Shown here: in pieces, positions 1 to 37,726 of the stretch
How the letters are laid out: each line of letters opens with the position of its first letter
Numbering within the stretch: position 1 is the first letter of the stretch
From: an uncultured bacterium
GTDB taxonomy: Bacteria; Acidobacteriota; Aminicenantia; Aminicenantales; Aminicenantaceae
Reading direction: 5' to 3'
DNA: 64,000 nt
NCBI GenBank assembly: GCA_965533275.1
Contig: CBESWG010000006.1
Location: forward strand, 5,634 to 69,633
The notes under the pieces: model-generated
The model's database searches: none
What the model was told of the DNA's origin: nothing
What the model saw: the letters and a program-made list of their open reading frames with translations, nothing else
Made by a program: the position numbers and the translations under genes

Positions 1-1846
1 TCTCTCCTGCCAGCACTTCCGATTCCGTCAGGGCGGTCCCCACCGGGCCGATGCGGGAGAAGACCGACTGGATGGATTCCCCGTGGTTTTCCTCCAGCAG
101 AGATTCCAGGCTGCGGACCGTTGATTCCGTCCGCTCCAGGTTCGAGCCTTCCGGGAGGAGCAGGGAGATCTCCAGCTCGTTCCGGTCGGTCTGGGGCAGG
201 AATTCGCTTCCCATGCGGGTGGCCAGGAAAGCTGCAGAACCGACCAGGAGAAGAGCCAGGAAGACCACCAGCCACCTTTTTTTCAGCACGCCGGCGAGGA
301 AACGGGCATAGAAGGGAAACTGCAGGGACGGCCGCGCCCGCTTTCCCGTGGGAGCCTTCAGGATCTTGGAGCTGAGCATGGGGATCACGGAGAGGGCCAC
401 AAAGAGGGAGGATAGGAGAGCGAAGGCCACCGTCCAGGCCTGCTCCCTGAACAGTGCGCCGGCGATTCCTTCAAGGTAGACGATAGGGAGAAAGACGATG
501 ATGGTGGTCAGGGTGGAGCTGGTGATGGCCCCACTCACCTCGCCCGCTCCGCGCACCGCCGCCTCCTTGAGCCCCAGGCCCTCCTCCAGGTGGCGGAAGA
601 TGTTCTCCACCACCACGATGGCATTGTCCACCAGCATACCCGCCCCCAGGGCCAGTCCTCCAAGGGTCATGATGTTCAAGGTCAGCTTGTTGAAGTACAT
701 CAGATTGAAGGTGGCGATGATGGAGACGGGGATGGCGATACTGATGACGGCGGTTACCCCGATCCTGCGGAGGAAGATGAACAGGATCAGGACGGCCAGG
801 CAGATGCCGATCAAACCGGTCTGTTCCACCTCCCGGACCGCGGACTGGATGAAGCCGGCCTGGTCCTGGATGATACGCAGCTCGTACCCGGGAAGCGCCC
901 TCTGGAGGTCGTCGATCTGGGCACGGATGGTTTCGGAGGCCTGAATGGTGTTGAACCGGGCTTCCTTGAAGATCTCGAGGGCAAGGCACCGGCGCCCGTT
1001 GTAGCGGACGATATTCTCGGGCTCGCTGAGCACATATCCCACTTCCGCGATATCCCTCAGAGTGATCGGGATCTTATCGGTGGTCTCCTCCGTCTCCTCG
1101 GCGGCATAGGCGACGATCAGGTTCCTCAGGTCTTCCAGAGATTCCAGTTCACCTACGCCGCGGATGATGTAGCTCAGGCCCATCTCGACGATGGATCCCC
1201 CGGAGATCGTCTGGTTGCTCTGCTGGATGGCGGAGGCCACCTGGTCCGAGGTCAGGCCGAAGGCTTCCAGTGTGTAGGAATCCGTCCGGATCTCGATCTC
1301 TCTCTTCTGTTCTCCCACGAGCTCCACGGCCGCCACGCCGGGAAGCCGTACCAGGTCGTTGCGGATGTTGTTCTCCGCGGTCTGCCGCAGCCTGTCCAGG
1401 TCCTCCAGGTCCTCATGCCAGAAGACGGCGGTGACGATGGGCTGGGAATTGGGATCGAGCTGGCTGACATTGATGTCATCCAGTTCCTGCCCCTGGTTGA
1501 AGTCTGCGACAACCTCCTGGAGCCCGAGATAGGCCTCGTCCATGTCTGCGTTCCACTCATACTCCACTGTGATCAATGCCCGGCCTACGCGGGATATGGA
1601 CGAGACCCCGGTGACCTGGCTCCCCCGGGCCGCCTGCGCTTCCAGTGGTGAGACGAACTGCACCTCCATCTCCTCAGGTGGGCGTTCCTCGGCCTCCAGG
1701 GACACGTAGAGCCGGGGGCTGTTGAGATTCGGGAGAAGGTCCATCCCCAGCCTCTGGAAGGAAATGTAGCCGAGCAGGCAGATGGCCAGGATGACCATGA
1801 CGACGGTCGTGGGATACCTGACTGAAAACTGTGCGAGCTTCCTCAT
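1..1846 (-). CDS. RND efflux permease (AcrB/HAE1-like), N-terminal ~615 aa; the gene runs past the window start
   Basis: Absent from the ORF track because it is open-ended. Manual translation of the minus strand from the ATG (plus 1844-1846) gives MRKLAQFSVRYPTTVVMVILAICLLGYISFQRLGMDLLPNL... Further on it gives ...TLGGLALGAGMLVDNAIVVVENIFRHLEEG, a conserved RND motif. The start lies 1 nt after the MFP stop. Confidence 0.85.
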   Translation of the reverse strand, partial: MRKLAQFSVRYPTTVVMVILAICLLGYISFQRLGMDLLPNLNSPRLYVSLEAEERPPEEMEVQFVSPLEAQAARGSQVTGVSSISRVGRALITVEYEWNADMDEAYLGLQEVVADFNQGQELDDINVSQLDPNSQPIVTAVFWHEDLEDLDRLRQTAENNIRNDLVRLPGVAAVELVGEQKREIEIRTDSYTLEAFGLTSDQVASAIQQSNQTISGGSIVEMGLSYIIRGVGELESLEDLRNLIVAYAAEETEETTDKIPITLRDIAEVGYVLSEPENIVRYNGRRCLALEIFKEARFNTIQASETIRAQIDDLQRALPGYELRIIQDQAGFIQSAVREVEQTGLIGICLAVLILFIFLRRIGVTAVISIAIPVSIIATFNLMYFNKLTLNIMTLGGLALGAGMLVDNAIVVVENIFRHLEEGLGLKEAAVRGAGEVSGAITSSTLTTIIVFLPIVYLEGIAGALFREQAWTVAFALLSSLFVALSVIPMLSSKILKAPTGKRARPSLQFPFYARFLAGVLKKRWLVVFLALLLVGSAAFLATRMGSEFLPQTDRNELEISLLLPEGSNLERTESTVRSLESLLEENHGESIQSVFSRIGPVGTALTESEVLAGE

Positions 1847-11735: not shown

Positions 11736-14666
11736 TTATTTGTCCCTAGAAATATCAATCGAGGGAAGGAAATTCCCCATGGCCCAAACCTCGTGCCGAT
11801 ACTCAAAACAATCGAAGGCGATGCGTTTTCCGTCGGGGTGGACATCCAGGGAGCTCCACAGCACGCCATACATCATCGGCTGGGGGCGACACAGCTCGCT
11901 CGCCTCCCCTCCTCCTGCAGGAATACGCCACACAGCACTTGGGCGTCCTTGTATATGAGAGTTGCTAAAGAGCAAGAACTGTCCATCCGGAGTCCAATCG
12001 ATCAGGGGATACTGTTTAAGATCTTCGTTCCTGAGCAGTTCCTTGAGCTCCCCCCCCTGTACTGGCATGGTCAAGATATGGTGGACCATACGCATCGGGG
12101 AGTCCCACCGCTCAAAAGTGGCCAGGGCCAGCTGTTGCCCATCTGGCGAAAGGGCAAAGTTCAGGCCTTGGGCGCCCATGGCATTTTCCATGCTGAACAA
12201 GTTCTTTTCCTGATTAGTTTCCATATTCCTGGCCAATAGGCTAGCCTTCCGTGTGCCAGGTTGGAACGCAACATATAACAAAGTTCCGCCATCCTGAGAC
12301 AGCTGCGCAGCACCCAACATAGTAGAATCACTCTGCACAAGGGCCACGCACGCACCTGAATCCACATCCAGGCTGAAAACGGCCTGGGATTTCCTGGCTT
12401 GTAGAGTCGAAATGAGAATAGATTTCCCATCGGATGACCACCGCAGCGAGAAAAAATATGGCAGTTCGGGATCGATTTCGCGCTCCTGGCCCGTTTCCGT
12501 GTCTCGGATATGGATTGTCTGAGAATCATCAGGCCTCTGAATGCCATACGCCAGGTATCGGCCATCAGGCGACCAGGCAGGAGTTACATCCGTTCCTGTT
12601 TGGCCAATGATCTGAGGTTTCGACAACAGCTCGCCTGCCTTCATGTCCACTTCGGCCACAACGGTCTCTATGGTGCTGAATTCAACCGCATAGTAAAAAG
12701 TGCCGTCCCGTGTGATTCCTTTCGGCCGGATCTTGGCGGGGATGTCGCGTTTGATGAGTTCCGGTGCCCCCGACCGCTTACCGTCGGCCACGGGCAGAAG
12801 GTAGGCATCAGAAGTATCCGAAGTGGAGAACGCTCCTGAATAACCCCGTTTGCGGTCACTGGAAAAAAGGAGGTATTTGTTGTCTGGCGTCCAGCCAAAC
12901 AATCTGTCATTAGCGCCATGCCGAACCACATGTTCCGTCTTTTGATTATTTAGATCGAGAATATAAATGTCTCTGTTTTCAGGTTTTCCCTCCTGATGCA
13001 GGTCATATGCGAAGTAGCGTCCATCCGGTGATATCGCCCTCCCCCTTGACCTGCCATTCCAGATAAAATCGAAAACATGGATCACCTGCATGGAGCCGTC
13101 TTCGATAGAGAAGGAAACCAGCTGATCTTGTTCGCCATCCCAAAACCCGCACAGGATCTGTTTCCCATCCGATATCCATGCATGTATCTTGACCTGTTCA
13201 CCTTGTTCAAAGCGATGAAGAGTCCGGTGTCCCGTTCCATCCAGGTTGATCAATTGGAGCTCTGTCTCTGGGGAAGGATAGAACTGGTTCATGTAGGCGA
13301 CAAGCTGGCTGTCGGGAGATATAACAAGGCCCCACATGCCGGCCCTGGAAACTTTGGTCAGCGGTCGGAACTCACCTGTCTCCAGGTCACAAACGACCAT
13401 CTCCGCGATGGTTAATTCGGGCGTCGGCCGGATGTCGCACATGTAGCGCCCGTCCAGAGAAGGCGGCCCCGAGAAGTCGGACATGGGGCCTGTTTTCGCC
13501 CTTCTCAACGAGATGCTGGGTTCAGACTCTGGCAAATAAGAGCTTTGCCTCCCTTCCCCGATGGCAAAAGAAAAAGACACGAAACTCACGGCCAGAATCA
13601 GGAAAACGGCCAGAGGTGACCACTGATAAGAGCTCGTTTTAAATTGGGAGATCATGGTGATCCTCCTTTTTAGCTGTGATTTATTCTCCAATATTCCCGC
13701 CATGGCCGGCAACGGTCGCGACTGGGAGAAGCGGCGCAAGAGCCCGACTATGACTTGTCCATACTCCTGTGATTTTTCTTTTCCCGTCCGTGAAAGGACC
13801 AAAGCATCACAGGAAAGCTCCCGGTCGGCCCGCATTCGGTAGAATGCAAACCAGACCAGGGGGTTGAACCAGTGTAGAATTTGCAGCAGGCTGATCATCC
13901 ATCCCACGTAAATGTCATGGCGTTTGAGGTGGGCCAGCTCATGGAGAAAGACATACTGCAACTCTTCTTGGCTGGCGACCTCGAGCATATCCATCGGCAG
14001 GAGAAGCCGGGGACGGATGAAGCCAAACAGAGCCGGGCTCTTGATCTGGGTGCTGGGTACAAGGCCAACGATCGTCTTGACTCCCATCCGCTCCTTGCAC
14101 TCCTCAAAAAGCTCCAGGGTCTTCTGGGTGAGTAACAGGCGCTCGCGCCTTACGATCCGCCAGAGGAAGAAGTTACTCAGGAGTATATACACACCGATCG
14201 CCAAGGCTCCGGCCAACCAAACAAAAGGCAGTATGCGGCGGAGAGAAGACACCCATGGTTTGGATTTGTTACCAACCTTGGAAAGAATCCCTGGTTTCGA
14301 AACTGATTGCTCCTGCGGTCCGGCAGTCTGCTCCGATCTTGGAAGGCGTTTAGATTCTGCCCTATCGGTTACCTGAGAAGCGAGGAGGGCTTCCTGCCCG
14401 TCAGCACCAACAGAAGCTTGCTGCTCCTGGAACGGCCGATCCAATGAGGGGACAAGGCTGAGAAGATTTACCTGGTTCGGAAAAACGCCGGGCATGACCA
14501 ATCGCAGAACTAGCACAAGCCACAGGGCATGACACCAGCGGGGGCCCAGCTTGCTGCCCAGAATTTTCTGTGCCACAAGAATTAGGCATATGACCAAGCT
14601 TGCGCTCAGGGTCGCCTGCAGGAGCCAGCCAAAAAATGGCTGAAAAGACGTGATTGAAGCTTCCAT
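11736..14666 (-). CDS. BlaR1/MecR1-like M56 peptidase signal transducer fused to a TolB-like (PD40) beta-propeller sensor domain
   Basis: 976 aa. The N-terminal TM helices and the HELAHLKRHD zinc motif match the M56 family. The C-terminal ~600 aa contain at least 8 repeats of the [WS]xPDGxx[LI]A[FY] type: ISPDSQLVAY, ISPDGRYFAY, WTPDNKYLLF, WSPDGRYLAY, WSSDGKSILI, LSPDGQQLAL, WTPDGQFLLF, VHPDGKRIAF. Confidence 0.85.
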   Translation of the reverse strand: MEASITSFQPFFGWLLQATLSASLVICLILVAQKILGSKLGPRWCHALWLVLVLRLVMPGVFPNQVNLLSLVPSLDRPFQEQQASVGADGQEALLASQVTDRAESKRLPRSEQTAGPQEQSVSKPGILSKVGNKSKPWVSSLRRILPFVWLAGALAIGVYILLSNFFLWRIVRRERLLLTQKTLELFEECKERMGVKTIVGLVPSTQIKSPALFGFIRPRLLLPMDMLEVASQEELQYVFLHELAHLKRHDIYVGWMISLLQILHWFNPLVWFAFYRMRADRELSCDALVLSRTGKEKSQEYGQVIVGLLRRFSQSRPLPAMAGILENKSQLKRRITMISQFKTSSYQWSPLAVFLILAVSFVSFSFAIGEGRQSSYLPESEPSISLRRAKTGPMSDFSGPPSLDGRYMCDIRPTPELTIAEMVVCDLETGEFRPLTKVSRAGMWGLVISPDSQLVAYMNQFYPSPETELQLINLDGTGHRTLHRFEQGEQVKIHAWISDGKQILCGFWDGEQDQLVSFSIEDGSMQVIHVFDFIWNGRSRGRAISPDGRYFAYDLHQEGKPENRDIYILDLNNQKTEHVVRHGANDRLFGWTPDNKYLLFSSDRKRGYSGAFSTSDTSDAYLLPVADGKRSGAPELIKRDIPAKIRPKGITRDGTFYYAVEFSTIETVVAEVDMKAGELLSKPQIIGQTGTDVTPAWSPDGRYLAYGIQRPDDSQTIHIRDTETGQEREIDPELPYFFSLRWSSDGKSILISTLQARKSQAVFSLDVDSGACVALVQSDSTMLGAAQLSQDGGTLLYVAFQPGTRKASLLARNMETNQEKNLFSMENAMGAQGLNFALSPDGQQLALATFERWDSPMRMVHHILTMPVQGGELKELLRNEDLKQYPLIDWTPDGQFLLFSNSHIQGRPSAVWRIPAGGGEASELCRPQPMMYGVLWSSLDVHPDGKRIAFDCFEYRHEVWAMGNFLPSIDISRDK

Positions 14667-14668
14667 AT

Positions 14669-15049
14669 TTATTCCCCCTTTTTCTTATCCAGGATCTCCT
14701 GCAGATCTTCTATTTCCTGGGCTGAGAGGTCCGCGTCCTCGAGGAAGGCAGCGAGGGCAGGCGTCTTCGCTCCCTGGTAAACTCGGCGAACAAAAGATTT
14801 TGTCTCGGACTGTATACATTCAGACTCATTGACCGCCGCAGAATAGCGATACCTGTAGCCCTCCTCCGTGATTTGGACGGCGCCTTTTTTCACGAGTCTG
14901 CTGATCAGAGTCTTGATCGTTCTGGGATTCCACTCCACCTCGTCAGAAAGAGCCTCAACAACATCATTTGCTAGCTGAGGGCCGTGTTCCCAAAGCACCT
15001 GCATCACCCTCCACTCTGAATCGCTTATCTTTGGAAGCTTCTTTTTCAT
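14669..15049 (-). CDS. BlaI/MecI/CopY-family transcriptional repressor (penicillinase repressor fold)
   Basis: 126 aa with a winged-helix N-terminus, SDSEWRVMQVLWEHGPQLANDVVEAL. It ends 2 nt before the BlaR1-like gene starts. Confidence 0.85.
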   Translation of the reverse strand: MKKKLPKISDSEWRVMQVLWEHGPQLANDVVEALSDEVEWNPRTIKTLISRLVKKGAVQITEEGYRYRYSAAVNESECIQSETKSFVRRVYQGAKTPALAAFLEDADLSAQEIEDLQEILDKKKGE

Positions 15050-15064
15050 GCTCTCTCCCTCTTG

Positions 15065-15108
15065 ATTACATTTGTAGTCGCGTTAACAAAATATTACGCT
15101 TGTAGTCG
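15065..15108 (-). promoter_or_regulatory. Two 16-bp direct copies of a TACA-N-TGTA-like box upstream of the blaI-like gene; putative autoregulatory operator
   Basis: ATTACATTTGTAGTCG at 15065-15080 and ATTACGCTTGTAGTCG at 15093-15108. The first contains TACA..TGTA, as in BlaI/MecI operators. Confidence 0.4.
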
Positions 15109-15300
15109 TTTGTCAAGGAAAATTCTGAAATTATTTTAAATAAGTGTGAAACATTCATCCCAAATGATTGATTTTGATGGCTTTATGCCATAGACCCATG
15201 CGATCTATGGGGGCTTTGGGCATGGGATATCCCCGGCTGAGCTTCAAAAAATGGCCCGAGCGGAATCCGGCCAAAGTGACCTGGATCTGAGCCGACAGGT

Positions 15301-15738
15301 TCAATACAGGATGTTCTTGAAGTCGAAGGGTGTAGTTCTGTACGTATCCCAGATCTTCCGGGCTTCTTCGTCCGCCCATTTTTCAAACCCCAGCTTCTTC
15401 ATCATGCAGAGCTGATACATCTTGGTGTTGTGCGGATAATGGGCTTTATCTGCGTAGGGCTGGAACCGCTCGCAGGGGAATTCGTCACATTCATGGCAGA
15501 ATTCCACGTTTTTCCCGGCCGCGCAAGTGAAGATCCTGCATTGCACATCCGGATTCAACACTTTGATCCTGCCCTCCTGGGCTCTGCATCCTTCACAGGC
15601 CGCCTTATCCTCAGGGACATTGAGAGCTTCGGACACCCGTTTCCTGATCTCCGGGTTCGACGATGCCATGTATGCCGGACAGTGAAAACAGGGCAGCCCG
15701 CAGGGCGAGGTTAATTGTTTTGCGGTGTTTGTATCCAT
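15301..15738 (-). CDS. Cys-rich small protein, DUF3795-like (putative metal/Fe-S binding)
   Basis: 145 aa with more than 10 Cys in CxxC-type spacing (CGLPCFHCPAY, CEGC, CHECDEFPC). Confidence 0.55.
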   Translation of the reverse strand: MDTNTAKQLTSPCGLPCFHCPAYMASSNPEIRKRVSEALNVPEDKAACEGCRAQEGRIKVLNPDVQCRIFTCAAGKNVEFCHECDEFPCERFQPYADKAHYPHNTKMYQLCMMKKLGFEKWADEEARKIWDTYRTTPFDFKNILY

Positions 15739-15815
15739 CTTTGCTCCGATCGTGAATCAAAGGGTAGAGTCATAGTAGCATATGCAGCACCAGAGTCAAT
15801 TCAGGTTTCTGGACC

Positions 15816-16802
15816 TTATAGCGTTCTCACCAATCGGAATCCTTTATCGATATAGCCGTCGATGCCGTGACCACGTGCTGCCGAGCGGACCCATTTCGCG
15901 CCGGCACTCGTCCAGCCGCCGCTTTTTAGGGTACGGTCATCTATCCTGAGCGAAGAGACTTCGGGTCCCTCGTAATCCGTCACCGTTCCTTTAGGATAGT
16001 CGTCATACCGATCCCAGACCCACTCCCACACGTTCCCGTGCACGTCATAGAGTTTCCAGGGATTGGGCTTCAGGCTGCGCACAGGCCAAGATCGTCCCTT
16101 TTCCATGGGGTTAAACACGGCCACCCTGGCGAGCTTGGGAAGGTCCGAGGCATCGCCTTCGTAGTGGGTTTTCTCTTTGTAGTTTGGCTCACGTATTGAG
16201 AAGGGCCCCGTGGTCCCGGCCCGGGCAAAGTGCTCCCATTCTCCCTCTGTCGGGAGGCGGTAACCATCGGCCGAAAAATCGCAGAAAACAGGACCGGCTT
16301 CGGTAGAGGTTATCGGTGAAGAGAAGGATTCATCCACGTAGTAGCAGCGAGTCAGCCCGTTCTGCAGGGATAAAATGTTAGCAAACAGGATCGCGTCGTA
16401 CCAGCCCACATTCTGGGCCGGATGATCCATTCCTCCGCCGCGCTGGGTGTCCGAGGGATCCGAAGGCAGGCCCGGCTGTTGAGCCTTCAGATCCGCCCAC
16501 ATCTGCCTGGTTAACTCCGTCTCCATGACTGCGAGCGTTCTTGTCAGGATATGAGTGAATGGCACCTCCCTCCAGCTGCCGGGCTCCGTCTCCGGCGATC
16601 CCTGGACAAATCCTTCCGGACCGGTCGCCGGCACGAAGCGCATGTTCCCGACGATCCCGTCTTCGCTGTAGAGCGCCCCAGGCTTGGGAGATTTCGCTGT
16701 GACAGCCCCATGAGGGATCGGTTTCTCCACTGCAAATACGTTGGGCATCACAACCAAAGCTGAGGCAATGAGTACCAAGCCTAGAGATTTCGCTGTGACC
16801 AT
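15816..16802 (-). CDS. Secreted formylglycine-generating-enzyme (FGE-sulfatase/SUMF1) domain protein
   Basis: GYRLPTEGEWEHFARAG and HGNVWEWVWDRY are FGE-domain signatures. The preferred start is the internal ATG at 16802, MVTAKSLGL..., which is preceded by AGGAGG and followed by a signal peptide. The ORF-track start is 16856. Confidence 0.8.
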   Translation of the reverse strand: MVTAKSLGLVLIASALVVMPNVFAVEKPIPHGAVTAKSPKPGALYSEDGIVGNMRFVPATGPEGFVQGSPETEPGSWREVPFTHILTRTLAVMETELTRQMWADLKAQQPGLPSDPSDTQRGGGMDHPAQNVGWYDAILFANILSLQNGLTRCYYVDESFSSPITSTEAGPVFCDFSADGYRLPTEGEWEHFARAGTTGPFSIREPNYKEKTHYEGDASDLPKLARVAVFNPMEKGRSWPVRSLKPNPWKLYDVHGNVWEWVWDRYDDYPKGTVTDYEGPEVSSLRIDDRTLKSGGWTSAGAKWVRSAARGHGIDGYIDKGFRLVRTL

Positions 16803-16822
16803 CCGACCTCCTCTATTGACGA

Positions 16823-16849
16823 CATCTGTCGTATATGATACGACAGATG
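16823..16849. promoter_or_regulatory. Perfect inverted repeat (12-bp arms, 3-bp spacer) directly upstream of the FGE-domain gene RBS, at the boundary of the low-GC island
   Basis: CATCTGTCGTAT-ATG-ATACGACAGATG on the plus strand. It is a candidate operator or transcription stop. Confidence 0.5.
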
Positions 16850-16894
16850 AGGTCAAAAGTCAAGCCCGGGCGCGAGTAAAGGAGGTGATGATGG

Positions 16895-17347
16895 CTATCT
16901 TTTCTTTGTAATATAGACCTCACCCAGTCCTACATATTCATCTCCATTATCCATCGAAACGACAACTTTGACATCATTGGCGGCATTTGGTTTTAACCAG
17001 TTCTCCAAAACCATCAGCTCCTCTAAACTGAATTTTAAGATCAAATTCCCCAGGCTATCTCTTGTCGCACGGATATTCTCTACTGAATCACTTCCGTTAA
17101 AATAGATGAATATGCTGTGGCCATTCGCAGCGTAGGAGGAATATCTCACATCCGTGAGAATCCGTATATCACCCCAGCGTTCGCTCTCGATATTGATGAT
17201 GTTCGGGGAAACATCGATGCCAATGTTGAATTGGGCATCCGTTACTTCGGCACCAACGCTCGTCATGGGGAGAAAGAGAACAAATGCGGACATTCCAATT
17301 AGATATACAGACAGCACCAAGAATTTTTTGAGTCCAACATGATTCAT
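16895..17347 (-). CDS. Hypothetical secreted protein (ORFan, low-GC island)
   Basis: 150 aa with a signal peptide and a beta-rich composition. Local GC is clearly lower than in the flanks. Confidence 0.5.
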   Translation of the reverse strand: MNHVGLKKFLVLSVYLIGMSAFVLFLPMTSVGAEVTDAQFNIGIDVSPNIINIESERWGDIRILTDVRYSSYAANGHSIFIYFNGSDSVENIRATRDSLGNLILKFSLEELMVLENWLKPNAANDVKVVVSMDNGDEYVGLGEVYITKKR

Positions 17348-17507
17348 TTACCGACCTCCGTTAAATTGATTTTTCAATCGGCTAAATGCATCTTATGTGC
17401 CATATTGTATCTAATTGATTGTAATTAAGATAAGATATTTCCAGGCCGTTTTCAGCCATCATAATTGTCTGGAAAACCACAAAAATGTAAGGCGGGAGAT
17501 GGATTTT

Positions 17508-18314
17508 TCAGTTCCAGGCAGTGCCGGACAGGAGATGCCACACATAATATCCTGTCTGCAGGATAAATGTGACAATGCCGGCAGCACCCGGTCTTTTCAG
17601 CAAGAACAGCATCCGGGGTGCGGCGAAAAAAAGCATGAAAAAGATGTAGGTCAGCGCAAAGATCAGGATCTTCCCGCCCATGGCCAATCCGACATAAGGC
17701 TCTGTGTCGGAAAAATAGGCGCTCCAGAATCCGACTGTCGTCAGGATCATGGTATTGACCCCCAGCAGGGCAAAAAGTTCGATCATCCAGGTTGAAAACG
17801 TCCTTTTATTCCGGCTTGGTTTGATCTTTATGATGAGGATGATCAGATATAGAAATGCCAGGATCAACCACAGGATCATTCCTCCCAGCACGGCAGCGGA
17901 GGTTTTGCCTTCTATCGTACCTGACATTCGGCCCAGCAGCTCAAAGAATCCGGCCGCGTCTGCCATCATGTATGTTACGAATATCCCAAAGAATACGCCG
18001 AAAAAGCCCATCCAGCCTTTGCTGTAGCCTGATTTCTGTTCGGCCGGGTCTGGCAGTTTGCGAATGATCACGACCGAAACACAAAAGATCAGATAGATCA
18101 CCCCAACCAGGATCCCGCTGAGCATTGATTTATGAGTGAAGAACTCAGTGAGGCGGGGGAGAAATAGGAGATACAGGATGACGGTCACGACATCCGCTAT
18201 AGCCGGTGCCCCTTTTTCGAGCACAAAACTTTTTATCACTACAGCACAAACATACTTCATCCGATTTGAGCGGTCAAATCGGTTCCTCAGCACAACAATC
18301 CTCTTCGTCTCCAT
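17508..18314 (-). CDS. Hypothetical polytopic membrane protein (ORFan, low-GC island)
   Basis: 268 aa with about 7 hydrophobic helices. The start is uncertain and could be the internal MKYVCAVV. Confidence 0.5.
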   Translation of the reverse strand: METKRIVVLRNRFDRSNRMKYVCAVVIKSFVLEKGAPAIADVVTVILYLLFLPRLTEFFTHKSMLSGILVGVIYLIFCVSVVIIRKLPDPAEQKSGYSKGWMGFFGVFFGIFVTYMMADAAGFFELLGRMSGTIEGKTSAAVLGGMILWLILAFLYLIILIIKIKPSRNKRTFSTWMIELFALLGVNTMILTTVGFWSAYFSDTEPYVGLAMGGKILIFALTYIFFMLFFAAPRMLFLLKRPGAAGIVTFILQTGYYVWHLLSGTAWN

Positions 18315-18363
18315 TCCCCCAAAAGTTGGCGAAGCTTGACGGGATCAGGTCAGAATCATATAG

Positions 18364-18942
18364 TTGCAGCAAAAAATGGGAGGAGGGGAAATGAAAAATC
18401 TCTGGACATCAATAATTATGACAGCGCTTGTATTCTTTGTGTTTTCTGCAGCCCTCACATTAGCATTCGACCAGGAACCTGCTCAGTGTGCCATAGCCGG
18501 GGGCAAGGTTGTGGTGAAAAGCCTTCCCGATAATTGGGAGTTCAACAAGTATGCCGGAGAGAATTCCTGCGCTGTGGAGAAGACAGATTCTCCTGAAAAT
18601 GTCTGCTATCTGAGCGCACAGATGGAGGTTGTGGTTCACCCTCGTCAAAACATCGGGAAAACCGTCAGAGAATGGGCCAATGACGGTGCGATGTACACGA
18701 TCGATGCTAAAAATCCTGAAGTGACGGATGCTGAACTGAGCGGAAAATCAGGGAACAAGCTGACCTACATGATAACCAGTTTCAACTTTGACAAGACAAA
18801 ATCCATCGAGGTCATCAATGAGGAGTATTTTTTTCTTACACCGGATTACGCCTTGAAAATCAATATTCGATACCACGAAGACGAAGCATCCATCGCAGGA
18901 AAAGAAGTGGAAGCGATCCTTTCACAGATCGAAATAAAATAG
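18364..18942 (+). CDS. Hypothetical secreted protein (ORFan, low-GC island)
   Basis: 192 aa. A signal-peptide-like region follows MKNLWTSIIMTALVFFVFSAA. Transcription is divergent from the membrane-protein gene. Confidence 0.5.
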   Translation: MQQKMGGGEMKNLWTSIIMTALVFFVFSAALTLAFDQEPAQCAIAGGKVVVKSLPDNWEFNKYAGENSCAVEKTDSPENVCYLSAQMEVVVHPRQNIGKTVREWANDGAMYTIDAKNPEVTDAELSGKSGNKLTYMITSFNFDKTKSIEVINEEYFFLTPDYALKINIRYHEDEASIAGKEVEAILSQIEIK

Positions 18943-18992
18943 TATAAGGGAATCTGCAGCATCGATTTTTCCTGACAGAAGAGAGAGAGAGA

Positions 18993-19529
18993 ATGCCGAA
19001 ATTGAGATTATTCACAATTGTCTGTCTAGGTTTTTTATTGGTATTTGCCTACGGCTGCAACAAGGCCTCAGAGGAAACTGAAGCGGTAGGAATGAGTGCA
19101 CACGAGCCAGAACAGGCTGAACAAGCGAAAGAGGGGGAAGAAGCCGGTACGCAGGAAGGCGAACGGGGCGAACACGAAGGAGAGGGCCGAGGCGAGCATG
19201 CTGGCGAAGGTGAACACGGAGAAGAGGGCGAAGAAACCGGCCCGCGGCTGGCCAAGGGCGGGACCCACGATGAAGTGCGCAAGGGAGTCCGGCTGATCCT
19301 GGCCTATGACAGCGAATCTTCCTCTTTCGTCGGGACCGTAGAGAACGTCTCTGAAAAGACGGTCTCCAAAGTGCGCATAGAGGTCCACCTCTCCAACGGC
19401 ACAGAACTGGGTCCTACGAATCCGATCGACCTTGCTCCCGGGAAAAAAATCAGCGTAGGACTATCCGCAGAGGGACAGTCGTTTGAATGGTGGAAGGCTC
19501 ACGCAGAAGCGGGTGACTCCGAACATTGA
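18993..19529 (+). CDS. Lipoprotein with a Glu/His/Gly-rich repeat region (putative metal-binding)
   Basis: Lipobox AYGC. The low-complexity stretch is EGEEAGTQEGERGEHEGEGRGEHAGEGEHGEEGEE. A globular C-terminal domain follows. Confidence 0.55.
   Translation: MPKLRLFTIVCLGFLLVFAYGCNKASEETEAVGMSAHEPEQAEQAKEGEEAGTQEGERGEHEGEGRGEHAGEGEHGEEGEETGPRLAKGGTHDEVRKGVRLILAYDSESSSFVGTVENVSEKTVSKVRIEVHLSNGTELGPTNPIDLAPGKKISVGLSAEGQSFEWWKAHAEAGDSEH
19155..19240 (+). repeat. Imperfect tandem coding repeats (GAAGG/GAGGG units) encoding the EGEH-rich region
   Basis: Read directly: gaacacgaaggagagggccgaggcgagcatgctggcgaaggtgaacacggagaagagggcgaagaa. Confidence 0.6.
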
Positions 19530-19708
19530 TTCAGAGGCTCAACGGCAAGACTCGAAAAACATATTAACGAATCCCATCTTCCCGGCAAGCGAGACAAAAT
19601 ACGCTATGGTGTTCTTGTCCAAATTGTAATATACATTCTAGCATAGAGGGAAGAAGCCGCTCCAAATGCGGCGCTGCCACCCAAAATATGATTTTGAGGA
19701 GGCTCTGT

Positions 19709-22246
19709 ATGCAAAAATCGCCAAGGATATTCGTCTATTCATTCTTGATTTTTATGCTGTTGGCACCCATCTTCGTAAGCTGCACAGCCCCGGTGACCAA
19801 AATCCCAGTCCGCGCCTACAACGGGTCCTACCCGGATGCCTTCAATGCCAGAGTGGCGTGGCCCATAGGCGGCATCGGCGCCGGCATGATCTGTCTCGAA
19901 GGTCGGGGGGCTATCTCCCATGTGTCTGTCCGAAACAAAATGGAGTTGTTCAACGAGCCCTGCTCCTTTGCCGCGGTCTGCATTTTAGGTGAGGACGGCA
20001 ATACCGCCCGTGTACTGGAGGGCCAGGTCCCCGATTGGAAGATCTTTGGCGGCCCAAGAACAGGAAACGGTGCAGCCGGCACAAGCTACGGGCTGCCGCG
20101 GTTCCAGGAATCTAAGTTCCTGGCCCGCTTCCCCTTCGGCACTGTCGCACTCCATGATCCCGATGTCCCACTGAAAGCCACGATCACGGGATGGAGCCCC
20201 TTCATTCCCGGAGACGCGGACAACGCCAGCCTCCCGGTGGGTACGCTGGAATACACCTTCGAGAATCCGACCGGCCGGGCCATGGATGTGGTTTTCTCCT
20301 ACAACTCTAAAAATTTCATGGCGGTCGGCCGCGAAGGCAACACCGTGAAGCCCATCAGGAACGGATTCGTCCTCTGGCAGGATGGCACGGAGAACAATCC
20401 GGAGCACCAGGGGGGGTACGCTGTCTTTGTCGAAGACGACAACGCCGTTGTCGACCACTGCTGGTTCAAGGGGGGATGGTGGGATGCGCTGACACTCACA
20501 TGGGAAAACATCGAATCCGGTGTGCCAATGGACAATCCGCCTGTGGAGGGAGCATGCCCAGGGGCGTCACTTTTTGTCCCCTTCACATTAGAGGCCGGCG
20601 AAGAAAAAACCGTAAAGCTCATGATCGCCTGGTATGTTCCGGAAACAAATCTGAGGCTCGGAACCGACCTTGACCCTTCACTCCTGACCGTGGACCCGAC
20701 CTGCTGTGAATCCGGCAACTTCGTCCCCTGGTATGCGGGCCGGTTCTCAGACATCTGCGATGTCGCGGAATACTGGCGTTTCCGCTGCGACGACCTGCGC
20801 CAGAAAACCAAGCTGTTCACGGACACCTTCTACGATACCGACCTCCCGGCGGAGGTCATCGAGGCCGCGGCAGCCAACCTGACCATCCTGAAGACCCCCA
20901 CGGTGCTCAGGCAGAAAGACGGGAGATACTGGTGTTTCGAGGGATGTTCCGACGACAGGGGCTGCTGCCATGGATCCTGTACCCATGTGTGGAACTACGC
21001 CCAGGCGGTCGCCCATCTCTTCCCCAGCCTGGAGAGGAGCCTGCGGGAAACGGAGTTTCTAAACAGCCAGGACGAGCGGGGCCACCAGACCTTCCGCACT
21101 CCCCTCCCCATCCGCCCCCCGGCCCATGATTTCCACGCGGCCTCCGACGGGCAGCTGGGCGGCATCATGAAGGTCTACCGGGAGTGGCGCATCTCAGGGG
21201 ACACGGAATGGCTGCAGTCCCTCTGGCCAAAAGTCCGGCAGAGCCTAGACTACTGCATCCGAACCTGGGATCCCAAGGGAAAAGGAGTGCTGGAGGAACC
21301 CCACCACAACACCTATGACATCGAATACTGGGGCCCTGATGGGCACTGTTCAAGTTTCTATCTGGGCGCCCTGGAAGCGGCGGTCAGGATGGGAGAGGTA
21401 CTGGAGGACGACGTTCAAAGCTATGCGAAGCTCCTGGAAAAAGGGAAGGCATTCTATGAGGCAGAACTCTACAACGGCGAATACTTCATCCAGAAGATCC
21501 AGACCGATGGCCTGGTGGCCACGTATCCGGGGATCGATTATTCAGGGAACGGCGGCGGCTACCAGAAGATCATCGACAAGCTCAACCAGGACGGCCCCAA
21601 GTACCAGTATGGCACAGGCTGCCTCTCGGATGGGGTCCTCGGCTTCTGGATCGGCCTGGCGTGCGGGCTGGATGAGATCGTCGATGCGGACAAGGTCACG
21701 AGCCACCTCCTCGCCGTGCACAAATACAACCTGAAGCGGGACCTCAGGGACTTCGCGAATCCCCAGCGCCCGTCATTTGCCATGGGAAACGAGGGCGGAC
21801 TGCTGCTGTGCACATGGCCGCGGGGCGGTGAGCTTTCCATCCCCTTTGTCTACAGCAACGAGGTCTGGACGGGGATCGAGTATCAGGTCGCCTCCCACCT
21901 GATGTTCGAAGGCAGAGTCGAAGAGGGGCTGGACATCGTGCGCGAATGCAGGGACCGCTACGACGGCCGGATCCGGAATCCCTTCAACGAGTACGAATGC
22001 GGCCACTGGTACGGCCGGGCTCTCTCCAGCTACGGGCTGATCCAGGGTTTGACCGGGGTCCGCTACGACGCCGTTGAAAAGACCCTCTACATCGACTCTC
22101 GTTTAGGAGATTCCTTCCGGAGTTTCCTGTCCACGGACGGAGGCTTCGGCACGGCCGGATTGAAGGCAGGCCGGCCCTTCCTGGACGTCAAAATGGGTAC
22201 GATAGAGATCGAACGTATCGTAGTCTCGGGTGAGGAACATAATTGA
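19709..22246 (+). CDS. Glycoside hydrolase family 116-like (glucosylceramidase / bile-acid beta-glucosidase GBA2-type), lipoprotein
   Basis: An N-terminal region (WPIGGIGAGMICLEGRG) matches the GBA2_N type. A catalytic-region pattern (YREWRISGDTEWL...EPHHNTYDIEYWGPDGHCSSFYL) is present. GAGGAGG precedes the ATG at 19709. Confidence 0.8.
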   Translation: MQKSPRIFVYSFLIFMLLAPIFVSCTAPVTKIPVRAYNGSYPDAFNARVAWPIGGIGAGMICLEGRGAISHVSVRNKMELFNEPCSFAAVCILGEDGNTARVLEGQVPDWKIFGGPRTGNGAAGTSYGLPRFQESKFLARFPFGTVALHDPDVPLKATITGWSPFIPGDADNASLPVGTLEYTFENPTGRAMDVVFSYNSKNFMAVGREGNTVKPIRNGFVLWQDGTENNPEHQGGYAVFVEDDNAVVDHCWFKGGWWDALTLTWENIESGVPMDNPPVEGACPGASLFVPFTLEAGEEKTVKLMIAWYVPETNLRLGTDLDPSLLTVDPTCCESGNFVPWYAGRFSDICDVAEYWRFRCDDLRQKTKLFTDTFYDTDLPAEVIEAAAANLTILKTPTVLRQKDGRYWCFEGCSDDRGCCHGSCTHVWNYAQAVAHLFPSLERSLRETEFLNSQDERGHQTFRTPLPIRPPAHDFHAASDGQLGGIMKVYREWRISGDTEWLQSLWPKVRQSLDYCIRTWDPKGKGVLEEPHHNTYDIEYWGPDGHCSSFYLGALEAAVRMGEVLEDDVQSYAKLLEKGKAFYEAELYNGEYFIQKIQTDGLVATYPGIDYSGNGGGYQKIIDKLNQDGPKYQYGTGCLSDGVLGFWIGLACGLDEIVDADKVTSHLLAVHKYNLKRDLRDFANPQRPSFAMGNEGGLLLCTWPRGGELSIPFVYSNEVWTGIEYQVASHLMFEGRVEEGLDIVRECRDRYDGRIRNPFNEYECGHWYGRALSSYGLIQGLTGVRYDAVEKTLYIDSRLGDSFRSFLSTDGGFGTAGLKAGRPFLDVKMGTIEIERIVVSGEEHN

Positions 22247-27552: not shown

Positions 27553-29742
27553 ATGAAATTTGAGAGGGCAATATTCCGCAGCCTGGTAGCTCGGAGGATC
27601 ACTCTGTTGTTTGGCCTCTGTGCGATAGTTCCCATCTTAGTACTGGGCCTTTTCTCCTACCTGCATGTGAACACCCAACTTCTTGATCAATCCCGGCAAC
27701 GTCTCCTGCATAGCACCAAGTCCTTGGGCATGAGCGTTTACGAGAGGCTGATATCGCTGCAGGCCGAGATGAACATGGTCGTCTCAGTATGGAGGACCGA
27801 CGGCAGCGCTGCGACTTTAGGTGATATTTCTGAAGAGTATCGCTCCCAGCTCGACCAGCACTATTTGGGAATCCAGGTTCTCTATCAAGATGGGGAAACG
27901 GCAGGCGTTTTCGGGCAGAATTTTCGACTACCCGAACTGAGTCTCGCAGAAGAACAGCATGGCTTCGCAGGCGAGGACCTGGTGCTGACGCGGAGCTCAA
28001 GCTCAACGCTTTCCAGGATTTTCCTGGCCCTGCCCTTTTCTGCCGAAAACGGGAGAAAAGCTCTGCTCATATCCGAGATCCAAGGCCTGTATCTCTGGTA
28101 TGCCGGCACTGAAAGCACCCTACCAGGTCAGACAGAGCTGCATGTCCTGGACCATGAAAAGAACCTCATCTTCACTTCGGCTATGGGAGCCTATCGTTTC
28201 CCGGATGATACATTCAAACAAATTCAGCCCAAAAATTCAGGCTGGTTTTCCTGGAACATGGGCGATAATGAGTATTTTGCATGCTACCGGGATCTTTTCA
28301 TGGAAAGCCGGTTCTTCTCTCCCACCTGGACCATGGTGGTCAGCGAGCTAAAATCCTATATGAATGCCCCGGCTGTCTACTTCAAACAAATTTATCCGCC
28401 GGTACTGATTTTTTCTTTGCTGGCCGTCATCCTTCTAAGTATCACTCAGATCCGGAAAAACCTCGTGCCCCTGGAAAAACTCAAGGCGGGGGCAGATGAG
28501 ATGGCAACGAAGAACTTTGAGACACGCGTCGAGGTATCCTCCAATGATGAGTTTGGGCAGGTGGCACGGTCATTTAACGATATGGCCGTAGAACTGGGAC
28601 GTCAGTTCAAATCATTGAGCATCCGTGCCGAGATCGACCGGGCTATCCTGGCGACCATGGAACCATCGGAGATCGCCAGGACCCTGGTACAAGATGTGAG
28701 AAACATCCATCCCTGTAAGGGCATCTGCGTAACAATCGTGGAGGATGACGACTCAGAGTCTGTAGAAAGCTATTTTTCTCTGGATACCGCCCATCAGGGG
28801 ATGGAGCAAGAGTCCTCCATCCTGAGCCAGATAGAAGTAGAGCGCATGCGTGCGACTCCGAATGCCCCCGAGTTGGCATCGTCCTGGGACGCACCCCGCT
28901 TCCTCAAGCCGTTGGTGCGGCAGGGGATGACCGCTTTCCACCTATTCCCCATATTTCTCAGCAAGAAATTGGCTGGCATAATCAGCCTCGGCTATGAAGG
29001 AAGATCATCCGCCCTCGAAGAAATCGAGCTCCTGCAGGTCAGGCAGCTGGTCGACCAGGTAGGAGTGGCCCTCTCGAATGCCCGCCTCATCAAAGAACTC
29101 CGAGTTTTTCATTGGGGGACTCTCACCGCGCTGGCCAGGGCGATCGATGCCAAGTCCCACTGGACCGCAGGACATTCTGAGAAAGTGACCAGGCTGGCAG
29201 TAAAGATCGGAAAAGCCATGAGACTGAAACCAGAGGAACTCGACATCTTGAGACGGGGTGGGCTCCTGCATGACATCGGCAAATTGGGTATCCCCAACAG
29301 CATCCTCGACAAAAAAGGCTCTCTTACACCAGAAGAAAGAGAGGTCATCCAAACACATCCGTTCCTGGGAGCACAGATATTGGAGCCGATCTCCTCTTTT
29401 GCAGACGTTGTGGACATCGTGTTCCAGCACCATGAAAACTATGACGGGTCCGGCTATCCCAACCAAATCTCTCGCGAAGACATTAGCCTGTACGGAAGGA
29501 TCGTAGCCGTCGCAGACAGGTTCGATGCGATGACCGCAGAACGGCCCTATAGAGAGGCCATGAAACAAGAAACGGCCGTCAACAAGATCATCCAACAGTC
29601 CGGGCACTGGTTCGATCCCAAGATCGTCAGGGCGTTCTTAGAGGTTATCGATCAGGAAGAGAACATAAACGACACAAGAAGAATAGAGTCGGGTTTTTTC
29701 ATCGACAGAGGTTCACAAAAAAACGGACTCCGTAGGATGTGA
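27553..29742 (+). CDS. Membrane sensor HD-GYP phosphodiesterase (periplasmic sensor - HAMP - GAF-like - HD-GYP)
   Basis: Two TM segments bracket a ~250-aa periplasmic region. A HAMP-like segment follows TM2. The HD motif LHDIGK and HHENYDGSGYP (the GYP motif) are present. Confidence 0.85.
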   Translation: MKFERAIFRSLVARRITLLFGLCAIVPILVLGLFSYLHVNTQLLDQSRQRLLHSTKSLGMSVYERLISLQAEMNMVVSVWRTDGSAATLGDISEEYRSQLDQHYLGIQVLYQDGETAGVFGQNFRLPELSLAEEQHGFAGEDLVLTRSSSSTLSRIFLALPFSAENGRKALLISEIQGLYLWYAGTESTLPGQTELHVLDHEKNLIFTSAMGAYRFPDDTFKQIQPKNSGWFSWNMGDNEYFACYRDLFMESRFFSPTWTMVVSELKSYMNAPAVYFKQIYPPVLIFSLLAVILLSITQIRKNLVPLEKLKAGADEMATKNFETRVEVSSNDEFGQVARSFNDMAVELGRQFKSLSIRAEIDRAILATMEPSEIARTLVQDVRNIHPCKGICVTIVEDDDSESVESYFSLDTAHQGMEQESSILSQIEVERMRATPNAPELASSWDAPRFLKPLVRQGMTAFHLFPIFLSKKLAGIISLGYEGRSSALEEIELLQVRQLVDQVGVALSNARLIKELRVFHWGTLTALARAIDAKSHWTAGHSEKVTRLAVKIGKAMRLKPEELDILRRGGLLHDIGKLGIPNSILDKKGSLTPEEREVIQTHPFLGAQILEPISSFADVVDIVFQHHENYDGSGYPNQISREDISLYGRIVAVADRFDAMTAERPYREAMKQETAVNKIIQQSGHWFDPKIVRAFLEVIDQEENINDTRRIESGFFIDRGSQKNGLRRM

Positions 29743-29748
29743 GCTGCC

Positions 29749-30216
29749 ATGAAAAACAGAACTTTAACCATAGGGATATTTGGAGTGCTATCTGTTGTCT
29801 GGCTGTGTTTTTGTACGGGGCGAGAAGTAGAACCCCTGTTGTATGGGAAATGGCGATGCCCCCATGATGATTACAAAAACACATATTTTGAGATACGCCC
29901 GGAAACGATCATATTCGGAAATAACCAGGACGAAACGGAAATTGGGACCATCAGGAACATCAAGTATCAGAGGCTGCCCGACAAAAAATGGGTCCAGTGC
30001 ACCGTGAAATATCACAATATGGAGTCGCTGGAATACGAGTTTCAGTTTTTATTCGATTCAGAAGCGGCCGACACCATTGTCTTTAAAAACCAAGAGGACC
30101 TTATCTGGACAAAGGAAAATACAGAGAAGGGAACGATCTCCCAATCCGATCCTGTTGAGCCTGCCTCTGTACCAGGCATCAGACCCAAAAAATTCCGGGA
30201 CGGGGCAGGCTCTTAA
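29749..30216 (+). CDS. Hypothetical secreted protein / lipoprotein
   Basis: 155 aa. Signal peptide with Cys (LCFCTG). No recognisable domain. Confidence 0.5.
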   Translation: MKNRTLTIGIFGVLSVVWLCFCTGREVEPLLYGKWRCPHDDYKNTYFEIRPETIIFGNNQDETEIGTIRNIKYQRLPDKKWVQCTVKYHNMESLEYEFQFLFDSEAADTIVFKNQEDLIWTKENTEKGTISQSDPVEPASVPGIRPKKFRDGAGS

Positions 30217-32174: not shown

Positions 32175-32567
32175 ATGAAAAAGATTGTGGCAACGGTTGT
32201 TATCTTCGCTTTGGTCATGCTGTCGAGTTTCTCCAACGCAGCACTTACAGTCCAGTCAGAAGGCCAGAAGGCTCTGCTGGGGACCTGGGATGTCGAGCTG
32301 ATTTCCCAAGGAATGCAGATGGAGTTTATCTTCAAGATGGAGGAGGATCAGCTCAAGGGAGAGATGGTTTTCGATATGGGCGCCGCCGAGATGGAGGACA
32401 TTGCTTTAGAGGAAGGAACACTGACTTTTTCGGCTGCAATTGACGCCGGAGGGCAGACCATCAGCATCGATGCGGAAGCTGTGATCGAGGGGGAGTCCCT
32501 GACCGGCACTATGTTTACCGACATGGGCGATGCCGAATTTTCCGGAACCAAGAGAACAGATCAATAA
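32175..32567 (+). CDS. Hypothetical small secreted acidic protein
   Basis: 130 aa with a signal peptide. Acidic, with internally repeated Gx[ST][ML] segments. Confidence 0.5.
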   Translation: MKKIVATVVIFALVMLSSFSNAALTVQSEGQKALLGTWDVELISQGMQMEFIFKMEEDQLKGEMVFDMGAAEMEDIALEEGTLTFSAAIDAGGQTISIDAEAVIEGESLTGTMFTDMGDAEFSGTKRTDQ

Positions 32568-37631: not shown

Positions 37632-37726
37632 GTTTCCTCCTGCAGGGCCGGCAACACGGACTTGATCACCAGATCATGCAGCCGGGACTATCGGTATCTT
37701 ATATAGAATCCTACGGCCTGACAAGC

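Follow-up and report, generated by a model that had tools for sequence, protein, structure and literature searches.

The locus described here raises the question of whether a conspicuous AT-rich stretch (positions 16895-19560) in the genome of an uncultured member of the Aminicenantaceae was acquired as one genomic island, and whether the perfect palindrome lying next to it marks the border of such an island. The stretch is part of a 64,000-nucleotide region of contig CBESWG010000006.1, hereafter referred to as the window, and carries four small genes designated A and B (minus strand) and C and D (plus strand), while the palindrome is located between gene A and a gene encoding a secreted protein with an FGE-sulfatase domain (the FGE gene). 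An initial annotation, made from the sequence alone, had described the four genes as ORFans forming a horizontally acquired, envelope-associated module with the palindrome at its edge. Comparison of gene order, codon usage and promoter architecture leads us to favour, with moderate confidence, a different reading, namely that the stretch is pieced together from four unrelated single-gene envelope families and is no single imported module, and that the palindrome is a BlaI-type operator of the FGE gene. Overall, the locus is an ordinary accessory-gene patch. The coordinates of all features are collected in Table 1.

Gene order in related loci

Several metagenome contigs, including ERZ23877832 NODE_41 (88 kb) and GCA_003704755.1, encode a D protein that is identical residue for residue, share the gene order of the window and are 100% identical to it across positions 14600-20000. 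Beyond these contigs, the four genes occur together nowhere else among the loci examined, and only pairs of them recur. Locus L011 (80% DNA identity) is the sole one in which D and C are kept divergent from B, with another gene following B, and the adjacency of B and A is limited to L054 (82% DNA identity, same order) and L055. In locus L006 the order UvrD-B-glyoxalase is preserved, and none of A, C and D lies closer than 8 kb; here, the identities to the window amount to 85% for GH116, 76% for UvrD, 68-72% for B and about 65% for the glyoxalase, and the region is rearranged. Gene B is further found alone, among unrelated neighbours, in L007, L009 and L012, and gene C alone in L010, next to a Ser/Thr kinase gene. 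Finally, A, B and C are absent from all 41 D loci examined, in which the neighbours of D vary and include SDR, M16 peptidase, MacB-type permease and MFS genes. This distribution is consistent with B as an old resident of the neighbourhood and with A, C and D as lineage-restricted accessory genes, which would have been shuffled among close relatives and stand beside B only in the closest ones. The neighbourhood itself would then be prone to rearrangement, in a high-GC (57%) member of the Aminicenantes, and piecemeal exchange among Aminicenantes is possible.

Marks of mobility were searched for in and around the stretch. Neither an integrase nor a transposase gene was found among the open reading frames (ORFs) of 16800-19700 or by Pfam, PHROG and PADLOC searches, the latter two of which gave no phage or defence matches. 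No tRNA gene is present in the 64 kb, no direct repeats flank the stretch, and the IMG/VR viral contigs contain no relatives of A or D. Together with the conserved position of B in L006 without A, C and D, these results do not support the earlier view of a horizontal acquisition as one unit.

The supposed envelope-associated module fared differently in its two parts. The envelope location itself stands as a prediction for all four products, since A and C carry signal peptides, B has seven transmembrane helices and D has a lipobox; a single module does not, as the four-gene unit does not recur. A joint function of the four genes as an envelope module, dedicated for example to metal handling and expressed from the divergent B/C promoter region, would agree with this shared location, with the order D-C/B kept in L011 and B-A in L054, and with the His/Glu-rich linker and conserved histidines of D. 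Nevertheless, beyond approximately 80% identity the neighbours differ for each gene: those recurring beside D are the SDR, M16 peptidase and MacB-type permease genes and not metal transporters, A, B or C, whereas A recurs next to genes for a histidine kinase and a NarL-type regulator. A common module is thus, in our estimate, very improbable.

Base composition of the AT-rich stretch

The compositional anomaly noted in the initial annotation was confirmed. The GC content of 16895-19560 is 47.6%, as compared with 57.5% in the remainder of the window, which ranks the stretch within the lowest 0.7% of all windows of 2,666 bp, about 3 standard deviations under the mean. Its immediate flanks have 58-60% GC, a little less than the 60% or more assumed before; the whole window has 57%, and most related loci 38-50%. 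The intergenic segments that had been put forward as visible examples of AT-richness (17348-17507 and 18200-18400) do have low values, 35% and 45-47%, respectively, but these are normal for this genome: spacers within the stretch range from 35 to 47% GC, within the normal range around the window-wide intergenic mean of 47% (22 spacers).

The AT-richness can be described as the sum of three effects, namely dense spacers of normal composition, amino acids with AT-rich codons, and a low GC content at third codon positions (GC3). Because the genes are short, normal spacers are unusually dense in 16895-19560. With the codon usage of the window, the GC contents expected from the amino acid sequences of A-D are 0.52-0.61, as against the observed 0.43-0.56; amino acid composition costs A, B and C 3-5 GC points, and synonymous choice a further 4-10 points in A-D. 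The GC3 values of A (the window minimum), C, D and B are 0.48, 0.51, 0.56 and 0.63, which is 0.25, 0.21, 0.15 and 0.12 below expectation, respectively, with a standard deviation of 0.067 for the other genes. These values are extreme for A and C only, so that codon usage is clearly atypical for two of the four genes, whereas B and D fall within the range of other low-GC3 genes of the window. Comparable deficits were found for the BlaR1-like gene (-0.14; GC3 0.61) and the blaI-like gene (-0.13) described below, and for the genes at 27553-29742 (-0.115) and 29749-30216 (-0.18); every gene between 9045 and 19529 has a GC3 under the window mean. In other organisms, the GC3 of A-family genes lies below that of the neighbouring genes in 13 of 15 loci (mean difference -0.076) and that of D-family genes in 23 of 33, and low GC3 would thus accompany these two families across hosts. 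Since other genes of the window show similar deficits and low GC3 is a family trait, composition alone is no proof of recent import, although an import of A and C is conceivable; and since the trait is family-wide for A and D and intergenic GC is normal, acquisition of the stretch as one island gains no support.

A single island, received recently from an Aminicenantes donor of lower GC content and still to be ameliorated, would account for the GC minimum of the window, for GC3 values under expectation in all four genes, for the 43-50% GC of the carriers of the closest homologues, which is like that of the stretch, and for the 80-82% DNA identity shared by L011 and L054 with parts of it. In common with horizontally acquired low-GC islands, the stretch has a local minimum of both GC and GC3, small genes of unknown function and a patchy distribution. 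It differs from them in lacking an integrase, a tRNA gene, att repeats and a recurrent unit, in the synteny of B with UvrD, GH116 and glyoxalase genes in a relative devoid of A, C and D nearby, in GC3 values of B and D no lower than those of the BlaR1-like and blaI-like genes and the two genes at 27553-30216, and in the low GC3 of the A and D families in other hosts as well. We therefore regard acquisition as a single island as quite unlikely. More generally, the locus illustrates that no mobile element is needed for a conspicuous AT-rich 'island' to form: short accessory genes together with normally AT-rich spacers and family-specific low GC3 suffice.

Apart from the stretch, two small genes of the window without Pfam match, at 29749-30216 and 32175-32567, have GC3 values of 0.53 and 0.63, respectively, and low GC3 in the window goes with small uncharacterised genes generally.

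The palindrome and the promoter of the FGE gene

The palindrome proved, as described before, to be perfect, unique and situated directly 5' of the ribosome-binding site of the FGE gene. It occupies the 92-bp gap between the stop codon of A and the FGE start, directly 5' of GGAGG (16811-16807) and ATG (16802), and can be extended imperfectly to 22-nt arms with 86% complementarity. The window contains two perfect inverted repeats whose arms measure 12 bp or more and whose loops do not exceed 10 nt, compared with 0.05 expected. Its core, GTCGTAT-N3-ATACGAC, was found only in two same-strain contigs among 88 loci, and its half-site is not enriched in the window. The second such repeat of the window (AAGCTCACAGGGG...CCCCTGTGAGCTT, 37723-37756) lies in the last codons of a minus-strand gene (37711-38631).

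The position earlier taken for an island edge coincides with a sigma-70-like promoter of the FGE gene, which on the minus strand reads TTGACT-ttt-GACCTCATCTGTCGTA(TCAT)a-TACGACAGATGTCGTC-aataga-GGAGG-tcgg-ATG. Operators of the CopY/BlaI type follow the 16-mer consensus RNYKACANNTGTMRNY, and MecI recognises TACA/TGTA dyads (PMC7253601). BlaI targets as a rule have their dyads in pairs, those in C. thermocellum containing two pairs of inverted repeats (PMC8457756). A blaI-like gene is located 1.8 kb from the palindrome on the same strand as the FGE gene, two genes downstream, and its product matches S. aureus MecI, its closest solved relative, over the full length (E 5e-24). The promoter of this gene reads TTGACA-aac-GACTACAAGCGTAATA(TTTT)gttaacgc-GACTACAAATGTAATC-...-ATG, and of all sites in the window only its proximal dyad GACTACAAATGTAATC (15064-15079) agrees with RNYKACANNTGTMRNY at every position. 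In both promoters the distal 16-mer begins 3 nt after the -35 element and overlaps the -10 element by 2 nt, while the proximal 16-mer lies past the -10 element. The two dyads of the FGE promoter are adjacent, and the 27-bp palindrome is made up of the right-hand half of the distal one, the remainder of the -10 element and the left-hand half of the proximal one. Given that this layout is the same as in the blaI-like promoter, the palindrome probably belongs to a BlaI/BlaR1 regulon and not to an island; more precisely, judged from its sequence, it is probably a double BlaI-type operator of the FGE gene. At locus L054 the -35 element, the 17-nt spacing, an AT-rich -10 element and the downstream half-site are conserved.

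The L054 sequence in question (940-1095, 3' of the A homologue) has the -35 element in GGGCTTGACTTT, followed at the conserved spacing by the AT-rich -10 element and TACGACAGA. An ORF (MTDHILELSQGLTFDV...) runs through this segment of L054, in frame, except for a 1-nt indel, with the upstream extension of the window FGE ORF, and the contig ends there.

Two other assignments of the palindrome were rejected. An intrinsic terminator is at odds with the absence of a U-tract or T-run after the hairpin, and the terminator scan listed nothing at this position. A LexA-type box was rejected on the spacing of such boxes, CTGT...ACAG being present with its halves 13 nt apart.

Another possibility is that the palindrome acts as RNA, either by forming, in transcripts reading through from A, a hairpin and outer helix that mask the Shine-Dalgarno (SD) sequence and the AUG start of FGE, with translational coupling or repression as the result, or by ending or stabilising the A transcript. 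The minus strand of 16900-16795 indeed folds at -46.6 kcal/mol (z = -6.3), with an outer helix that pairs GCCAUC...ACCUCCUUUA, just past the A stop, with the FGE SD and AUG; the anti-SD/SD duplex (-23.4 kcal/mol) is the strongest of 48 genes, and its energy was reached by 0.95% of shuffles. Such a role would be relevant to read-through transcripts only. Initiation at the strong promoter match would fall within the hairpin, so that the transcript would lack the 5' partner. Moreover, the hairpin has no U-tract, the anti-SD segment is not conserved in L054, and no Rfam family was matched in 15000-21000. An RNA function thus appears distinctly less plausible than the operator. On the plus strand, the same bases as the anti-SD segment read AAAGGAGGTGATGATGG, a strong SD sequence that precedes a mini-ORF of 7 codons (16889-16912).

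Near its 5' end, the coding sequence of FGE itself contains a perfect 16-nt direct repeat (GAGATTTCGCTGTGAC, 16688-16703 and 16784-16799), which encodes VTAKS twice, one copy belonging to the signal-peptide region and the other to the beginning of the mature region.

A BlaI/BlaR1-like pair with a presumed beta-propeller sensor

The genes for the repressor and for the BlaR1-like M56 peptidase adjoin each other. The locus shares with known BlaR1-BlaI and BlaI/MecI/CopY systems this arrangement of a winged-helix Penicillinase_R gene next to a BlaR1-like gene, the presence of two dyads in each promoter, of which the first covers the -35/-10 spacer and the second follows shortly downstream, and a candidate autoregulatory site of exact consensus in the promoter of the repressor. 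It differs in that the BlaR1-like protein has a long PD40/TolB/tricorn-like beta-propeller in place of the penicillin-binding sensor domain, in that the putative target is a secreted FGE-sulfatase-domain protein and not a beta-lactamase or PBP2a, and in the putative half-site, which is ACGACA instead of TTACA. The BlaI-like repressor would bind the FGE promoter and its own, and, by analogy with BlaR1/BlaI, the M56 protease with its beta-propeller sensor would cleave the repressor and thus release it. The palindrome may thereby be reassigned to a switch of the BlaI/BlaR1 type in which neither the sensor nor the target is related to beta-lactams. To our knowledge, BlaR1-like M56 proteins with sensor domains other than penicillin-binding ones are largely uncharacterised.

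A bolder and only tentative proposal would be that of a non-beta-lactam BlaR1/BlaI regulon in which the M56 protease with the TolB-like propeller controls, via MecI-type dyads, the secreted FGE-domain enzyme and perhaps a DUF3795 protein, with the D family, described below, consisting of widespread lipoproteins that buffer metal in the periplasm and bear a tunable His/Glu tether. The locus is of modest interest for these two features, the putative BlaI-type operator of a non-beta-lactam BlaR1-like system and the large unannotated D family.

Weighing of the proposed patchwork and operator

Several results weigh against the reading of the locus as a patchwork adjoined by a BlaI-type operator. 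As regards the patchwork, the codon usage of A and C is the most deviant in the window (3-4 standard deviations) and the homologues of B and C mostly match the GC3 of their hosts (L010, L007, L009 and L012), so that single-gene transfer from lower-GC Aminicenantes is still conceivable, and such transfer of individual genes is possible. In addition, the nearest relatives with B-A or D-C/B are contigs of 1.1-3.8 kb, and no orthologous FGE-to-GH116 interval without the four genes was retrieved. As regards the operator, the whole window contains 4 matches to RNYKACANNTGTMRNY with at most one mismatch compared with 3.0 expected, which is no enrichment; the distal box of the FGE promoter, with its three mismatches, is weak and is not conserved in L054; and part of the box definition was taken from these same two promoters.

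The chance-level motif counts and the poor fit of the distal box would also suit an operator of an unrelated dimeric regulator encoded elsewhere, its likeness to a BlaI box being accidental, as would the symmetry of the 12-bp arms, which exceeds that of one 16-bp BlaI dyad. Against this stand the three KACANNTGTM sites of the 64 kb, two of which fall in the FGE and blaI-like promoters, that is, in two promoters of one gene cluster, as well as the identical register of the boxes relative to the -35 and -10 elements in both and the cognate repressor gene 1.8 kb away on the same strand. An unrelated regulator is accordingly considered unlikely, and a BlaI-type operator the more probable reading.

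Table 1. Positions of the genes, promoters and dyads discussed in the text, numbered from the first letter of the window
Feature	Position	Strand	Evidence and remarks
BlaR1-like M56 peptidase fused to PD40/TolB-like beta-propeller, 976 amino acids (aa)	11736..14666	-	Peptidase_M56 E 2e-64, PD40 E 1e-20; presumed sensor-protease partner
BlaI/MecI-family repressor, 126 aa	14669..15049	-	Pfam Penicillinase_R, E 9e-36; candidate palindrome binder
Promoter of blaI-like gene with two dyads	15064..15116	-	TTGACA (15116-15111), GACTACAAGCGTAATA (15107-15092), -10 TATTTT (15093-15088), GACTACAAATGTAATC (15079-15064)
Secreted FGE-sulfatase-domain protein, 328 aa	15816..16802	-	Pfam PF03781, E 3e-29
Proximal BlaI/MecI/CopY-type dyad TACGACAGATGTCGTC	16818..16833	-	Directly 3' of -10; 1 mismatch to RNYKACANNTGTMRNY
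Perfect palindrome, CATCTGTCGTAT-ATG-ATACGACAGATG	16823..16849	.	12-bp arms, 3-bp centre; unique; imperfect extension 16813-16859
Sigma-70-like FGE promoter	16835..16863	-	TTGACT (16863-16858), 17 nt, TATCAT (16840-16835); 10/12 consensus, equal best in 14600-19800
Distal weaker dyad GACCTCATCTGTCGTA	16839..16854	-	3 mismatches to the 16-mer; starts 3 nt past -35, 2-nt overlap with -10
Gene A, secreted protein, 150 aa	16895..17347	-	ORF; signal peptide and conserved domain of about 115 aa (alignment A1)
Gene B, integral membrane protein, 243 aa	17508..18239	-	Seven long predicted transmembrane helices; homologues start at GTG 18239; ORF reaches 18314
Divergent B/C promoter-like sites	18249..18364	both	Minus TTGACC-17-TATGTT (18277-18249); plus TTGACG-17-TATAGT (18336-18364); consensus matches only
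Gene C, secreted protein, 183 aa	18391..18942	+	Signal peptide, conserved cysteines; start ATG 18391 behind GGGAGGAGGGG
Gene D, lipoprotein, 178 aa	18993..19529	+	Signal peptide, lipobox Cys22, acidic linker, C-terminal FxLYD-type Ig-like beta-sandwich
D linker, residues 23-82	19059..19238	+	Disordered, EGEH/GEG type; predicted local distance difference test (pLDDT) <50
D folded domain, residues 85-172	19245..19508	+	Alignment A2; AlphaFold2 (AF2) pLDDT >95

Gene D encodes a predicted lipoprotein of a large family

Gene D has more than 1,600 homologues, and the 41 D loci in GTDB species representatives come from Aminicenantes, Pirellulales, Rhodothermaceae, Dehalococcoidia, Poribacteria and Latescibacterota, among others. 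The statement that none of the four proteins contains a recognisable domain holds for Pfam, in which A-D have no match, but not for NCBIfam, as the D family matches FxLYD_dom (NF038353): 37 of 38 aligned relatives do so at E<=0.01 (best 1.8e-10), and the D protein of the window, with 22.1 bits, falls 0.9 bit under the cut-off of 23. No meaningful PDB sequence-profile match was obtained, the structure search returned generic Ig-like folds only, and fold searches revealed no known metal site. The lipobox (LVFAYG-C22) predicts lipidation, and its Cys is kept in the family members without a tandem-domain N-terminus. Three glutamates of the folded domain (E117, E138 and E172) show no variation in the family alignment, and two histidines, H132 and H170, reach at least 90% conservation, within a WWKAHAE motif.

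The linker between the lipobox and the domain, rich in Glu, Gly and His, is found throughout the Aminicenantes-type D family as a trait of variable length: in 38 members it spans 29-102 aa, with 33% E, 20% G, 8% H and 0-13 His residues, and in the closest distinct relative (L011) it is almost absent. Metal binding by the His/Glu repeat, judged from the sequence, is plausible, the null reading of the linker being a plain flexible lipoprotein tether. The role of D is most likely periplasmic ligand binding, the ligand possibly being a divalent metal, by an FxLYD-type domain on a flexible, acidic, His-containing tether.

The approximately 90-aa C-terminal beta-sandwich is shared with FxLYD proteins (NF038353) and with Ig-like lipoproteins such as B. 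subtilis YjhA (3cfu) and E. coli YajI (2jwy); to these, the D subfamily adds the Glu/Gly/His-rich tether and a conserved WWKAHAE...SEH C-terminus. We know of no function assigned to the FxLYD domain. Like His-rich periplasmic metal-binding proteins and the disordered tethers of Gram-negative lipoproteins, D has an acidic, His-containing low-complexity segment directly after the lipobox Cys, followed by a small folded domain. It differs from the His-rich metal-binding proteins in that its linker has only 8% His, with one close homologue devoid of His, and in that the neighbourhoods of its gene are free of metal transporters and metal regulators. A group of homologues of about 262 aa, of the type found at L099 (P0099, P0126, P0139 and P0140), has two tandem FxLYD-type domains split by a His/Glu linker, and a transmembrane anchor instead of the lipobox.

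Genes A, B and C

All four ORFs of the initial annotation are present on the strands assigned to them and account for all ORFs of at least 60 aa in 16800-19700, with two corrected lengths: B most likely has 243 instead of 268 aa, and C has 183 instead of 192. The GTG at 18239 is the most likely start of B, because its homologues, 237-250 aa long, align from there. The label of ORFans was not borne out, since homologues were found not only for D but also for A (29), B (49) and C (10). None of A, B and C has a match in Pfam, NCBIfam, PADLOC or PHROGs, searches that gave for D the near-threshold FxLYD match alone, and A has none in PDB sequence-profile searches either.

At E<=1e-3, 29 of 1.84 billion cluster representatives fall into the A family, whose member in the window is a secreted protein with a beta-rich domain. 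Distant A-family genes lie directly 3' of a gene for a NarL-type response regulator in at least six loci, in four of which a PAS-HisKA_3 kinase is encoded on the same contig, which suggests a role for the family as target or accessory of these two-component systems. In L060, L062, L069 and L080, and also in L083 and L085, the A-family gene is located just downstream of the genes for a PAS-HisKA_3 histidine kinase and a NarL/LuxR-type regulator.

The homologues of B, down to 42% identity, include some from Anaerolineales, and the best-named homologues of both B and D belong to metagenome-assembled genomes of Candidatus Aminicenantes or Acidobacteriota. B and D thus stand for sizeable uncharacterised envelope protein families of uncultured Aminicenantes, of which that of D is large and has no Pfam entry. 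The C family is, on the other hand, very narrow, with 56-99% identity among its 10 homologues from 5.8 billion proteins, and 70 columns of its alignment (A5) are invariant.

Between B and C, a perfect palindrome with 9-bp arms (CCGATTTGA gcgg TCAAATCGG, 18261-18282) covers the -35 element of the promoter-like site of B; about one such palindrome is expected by chance per 5 kb.

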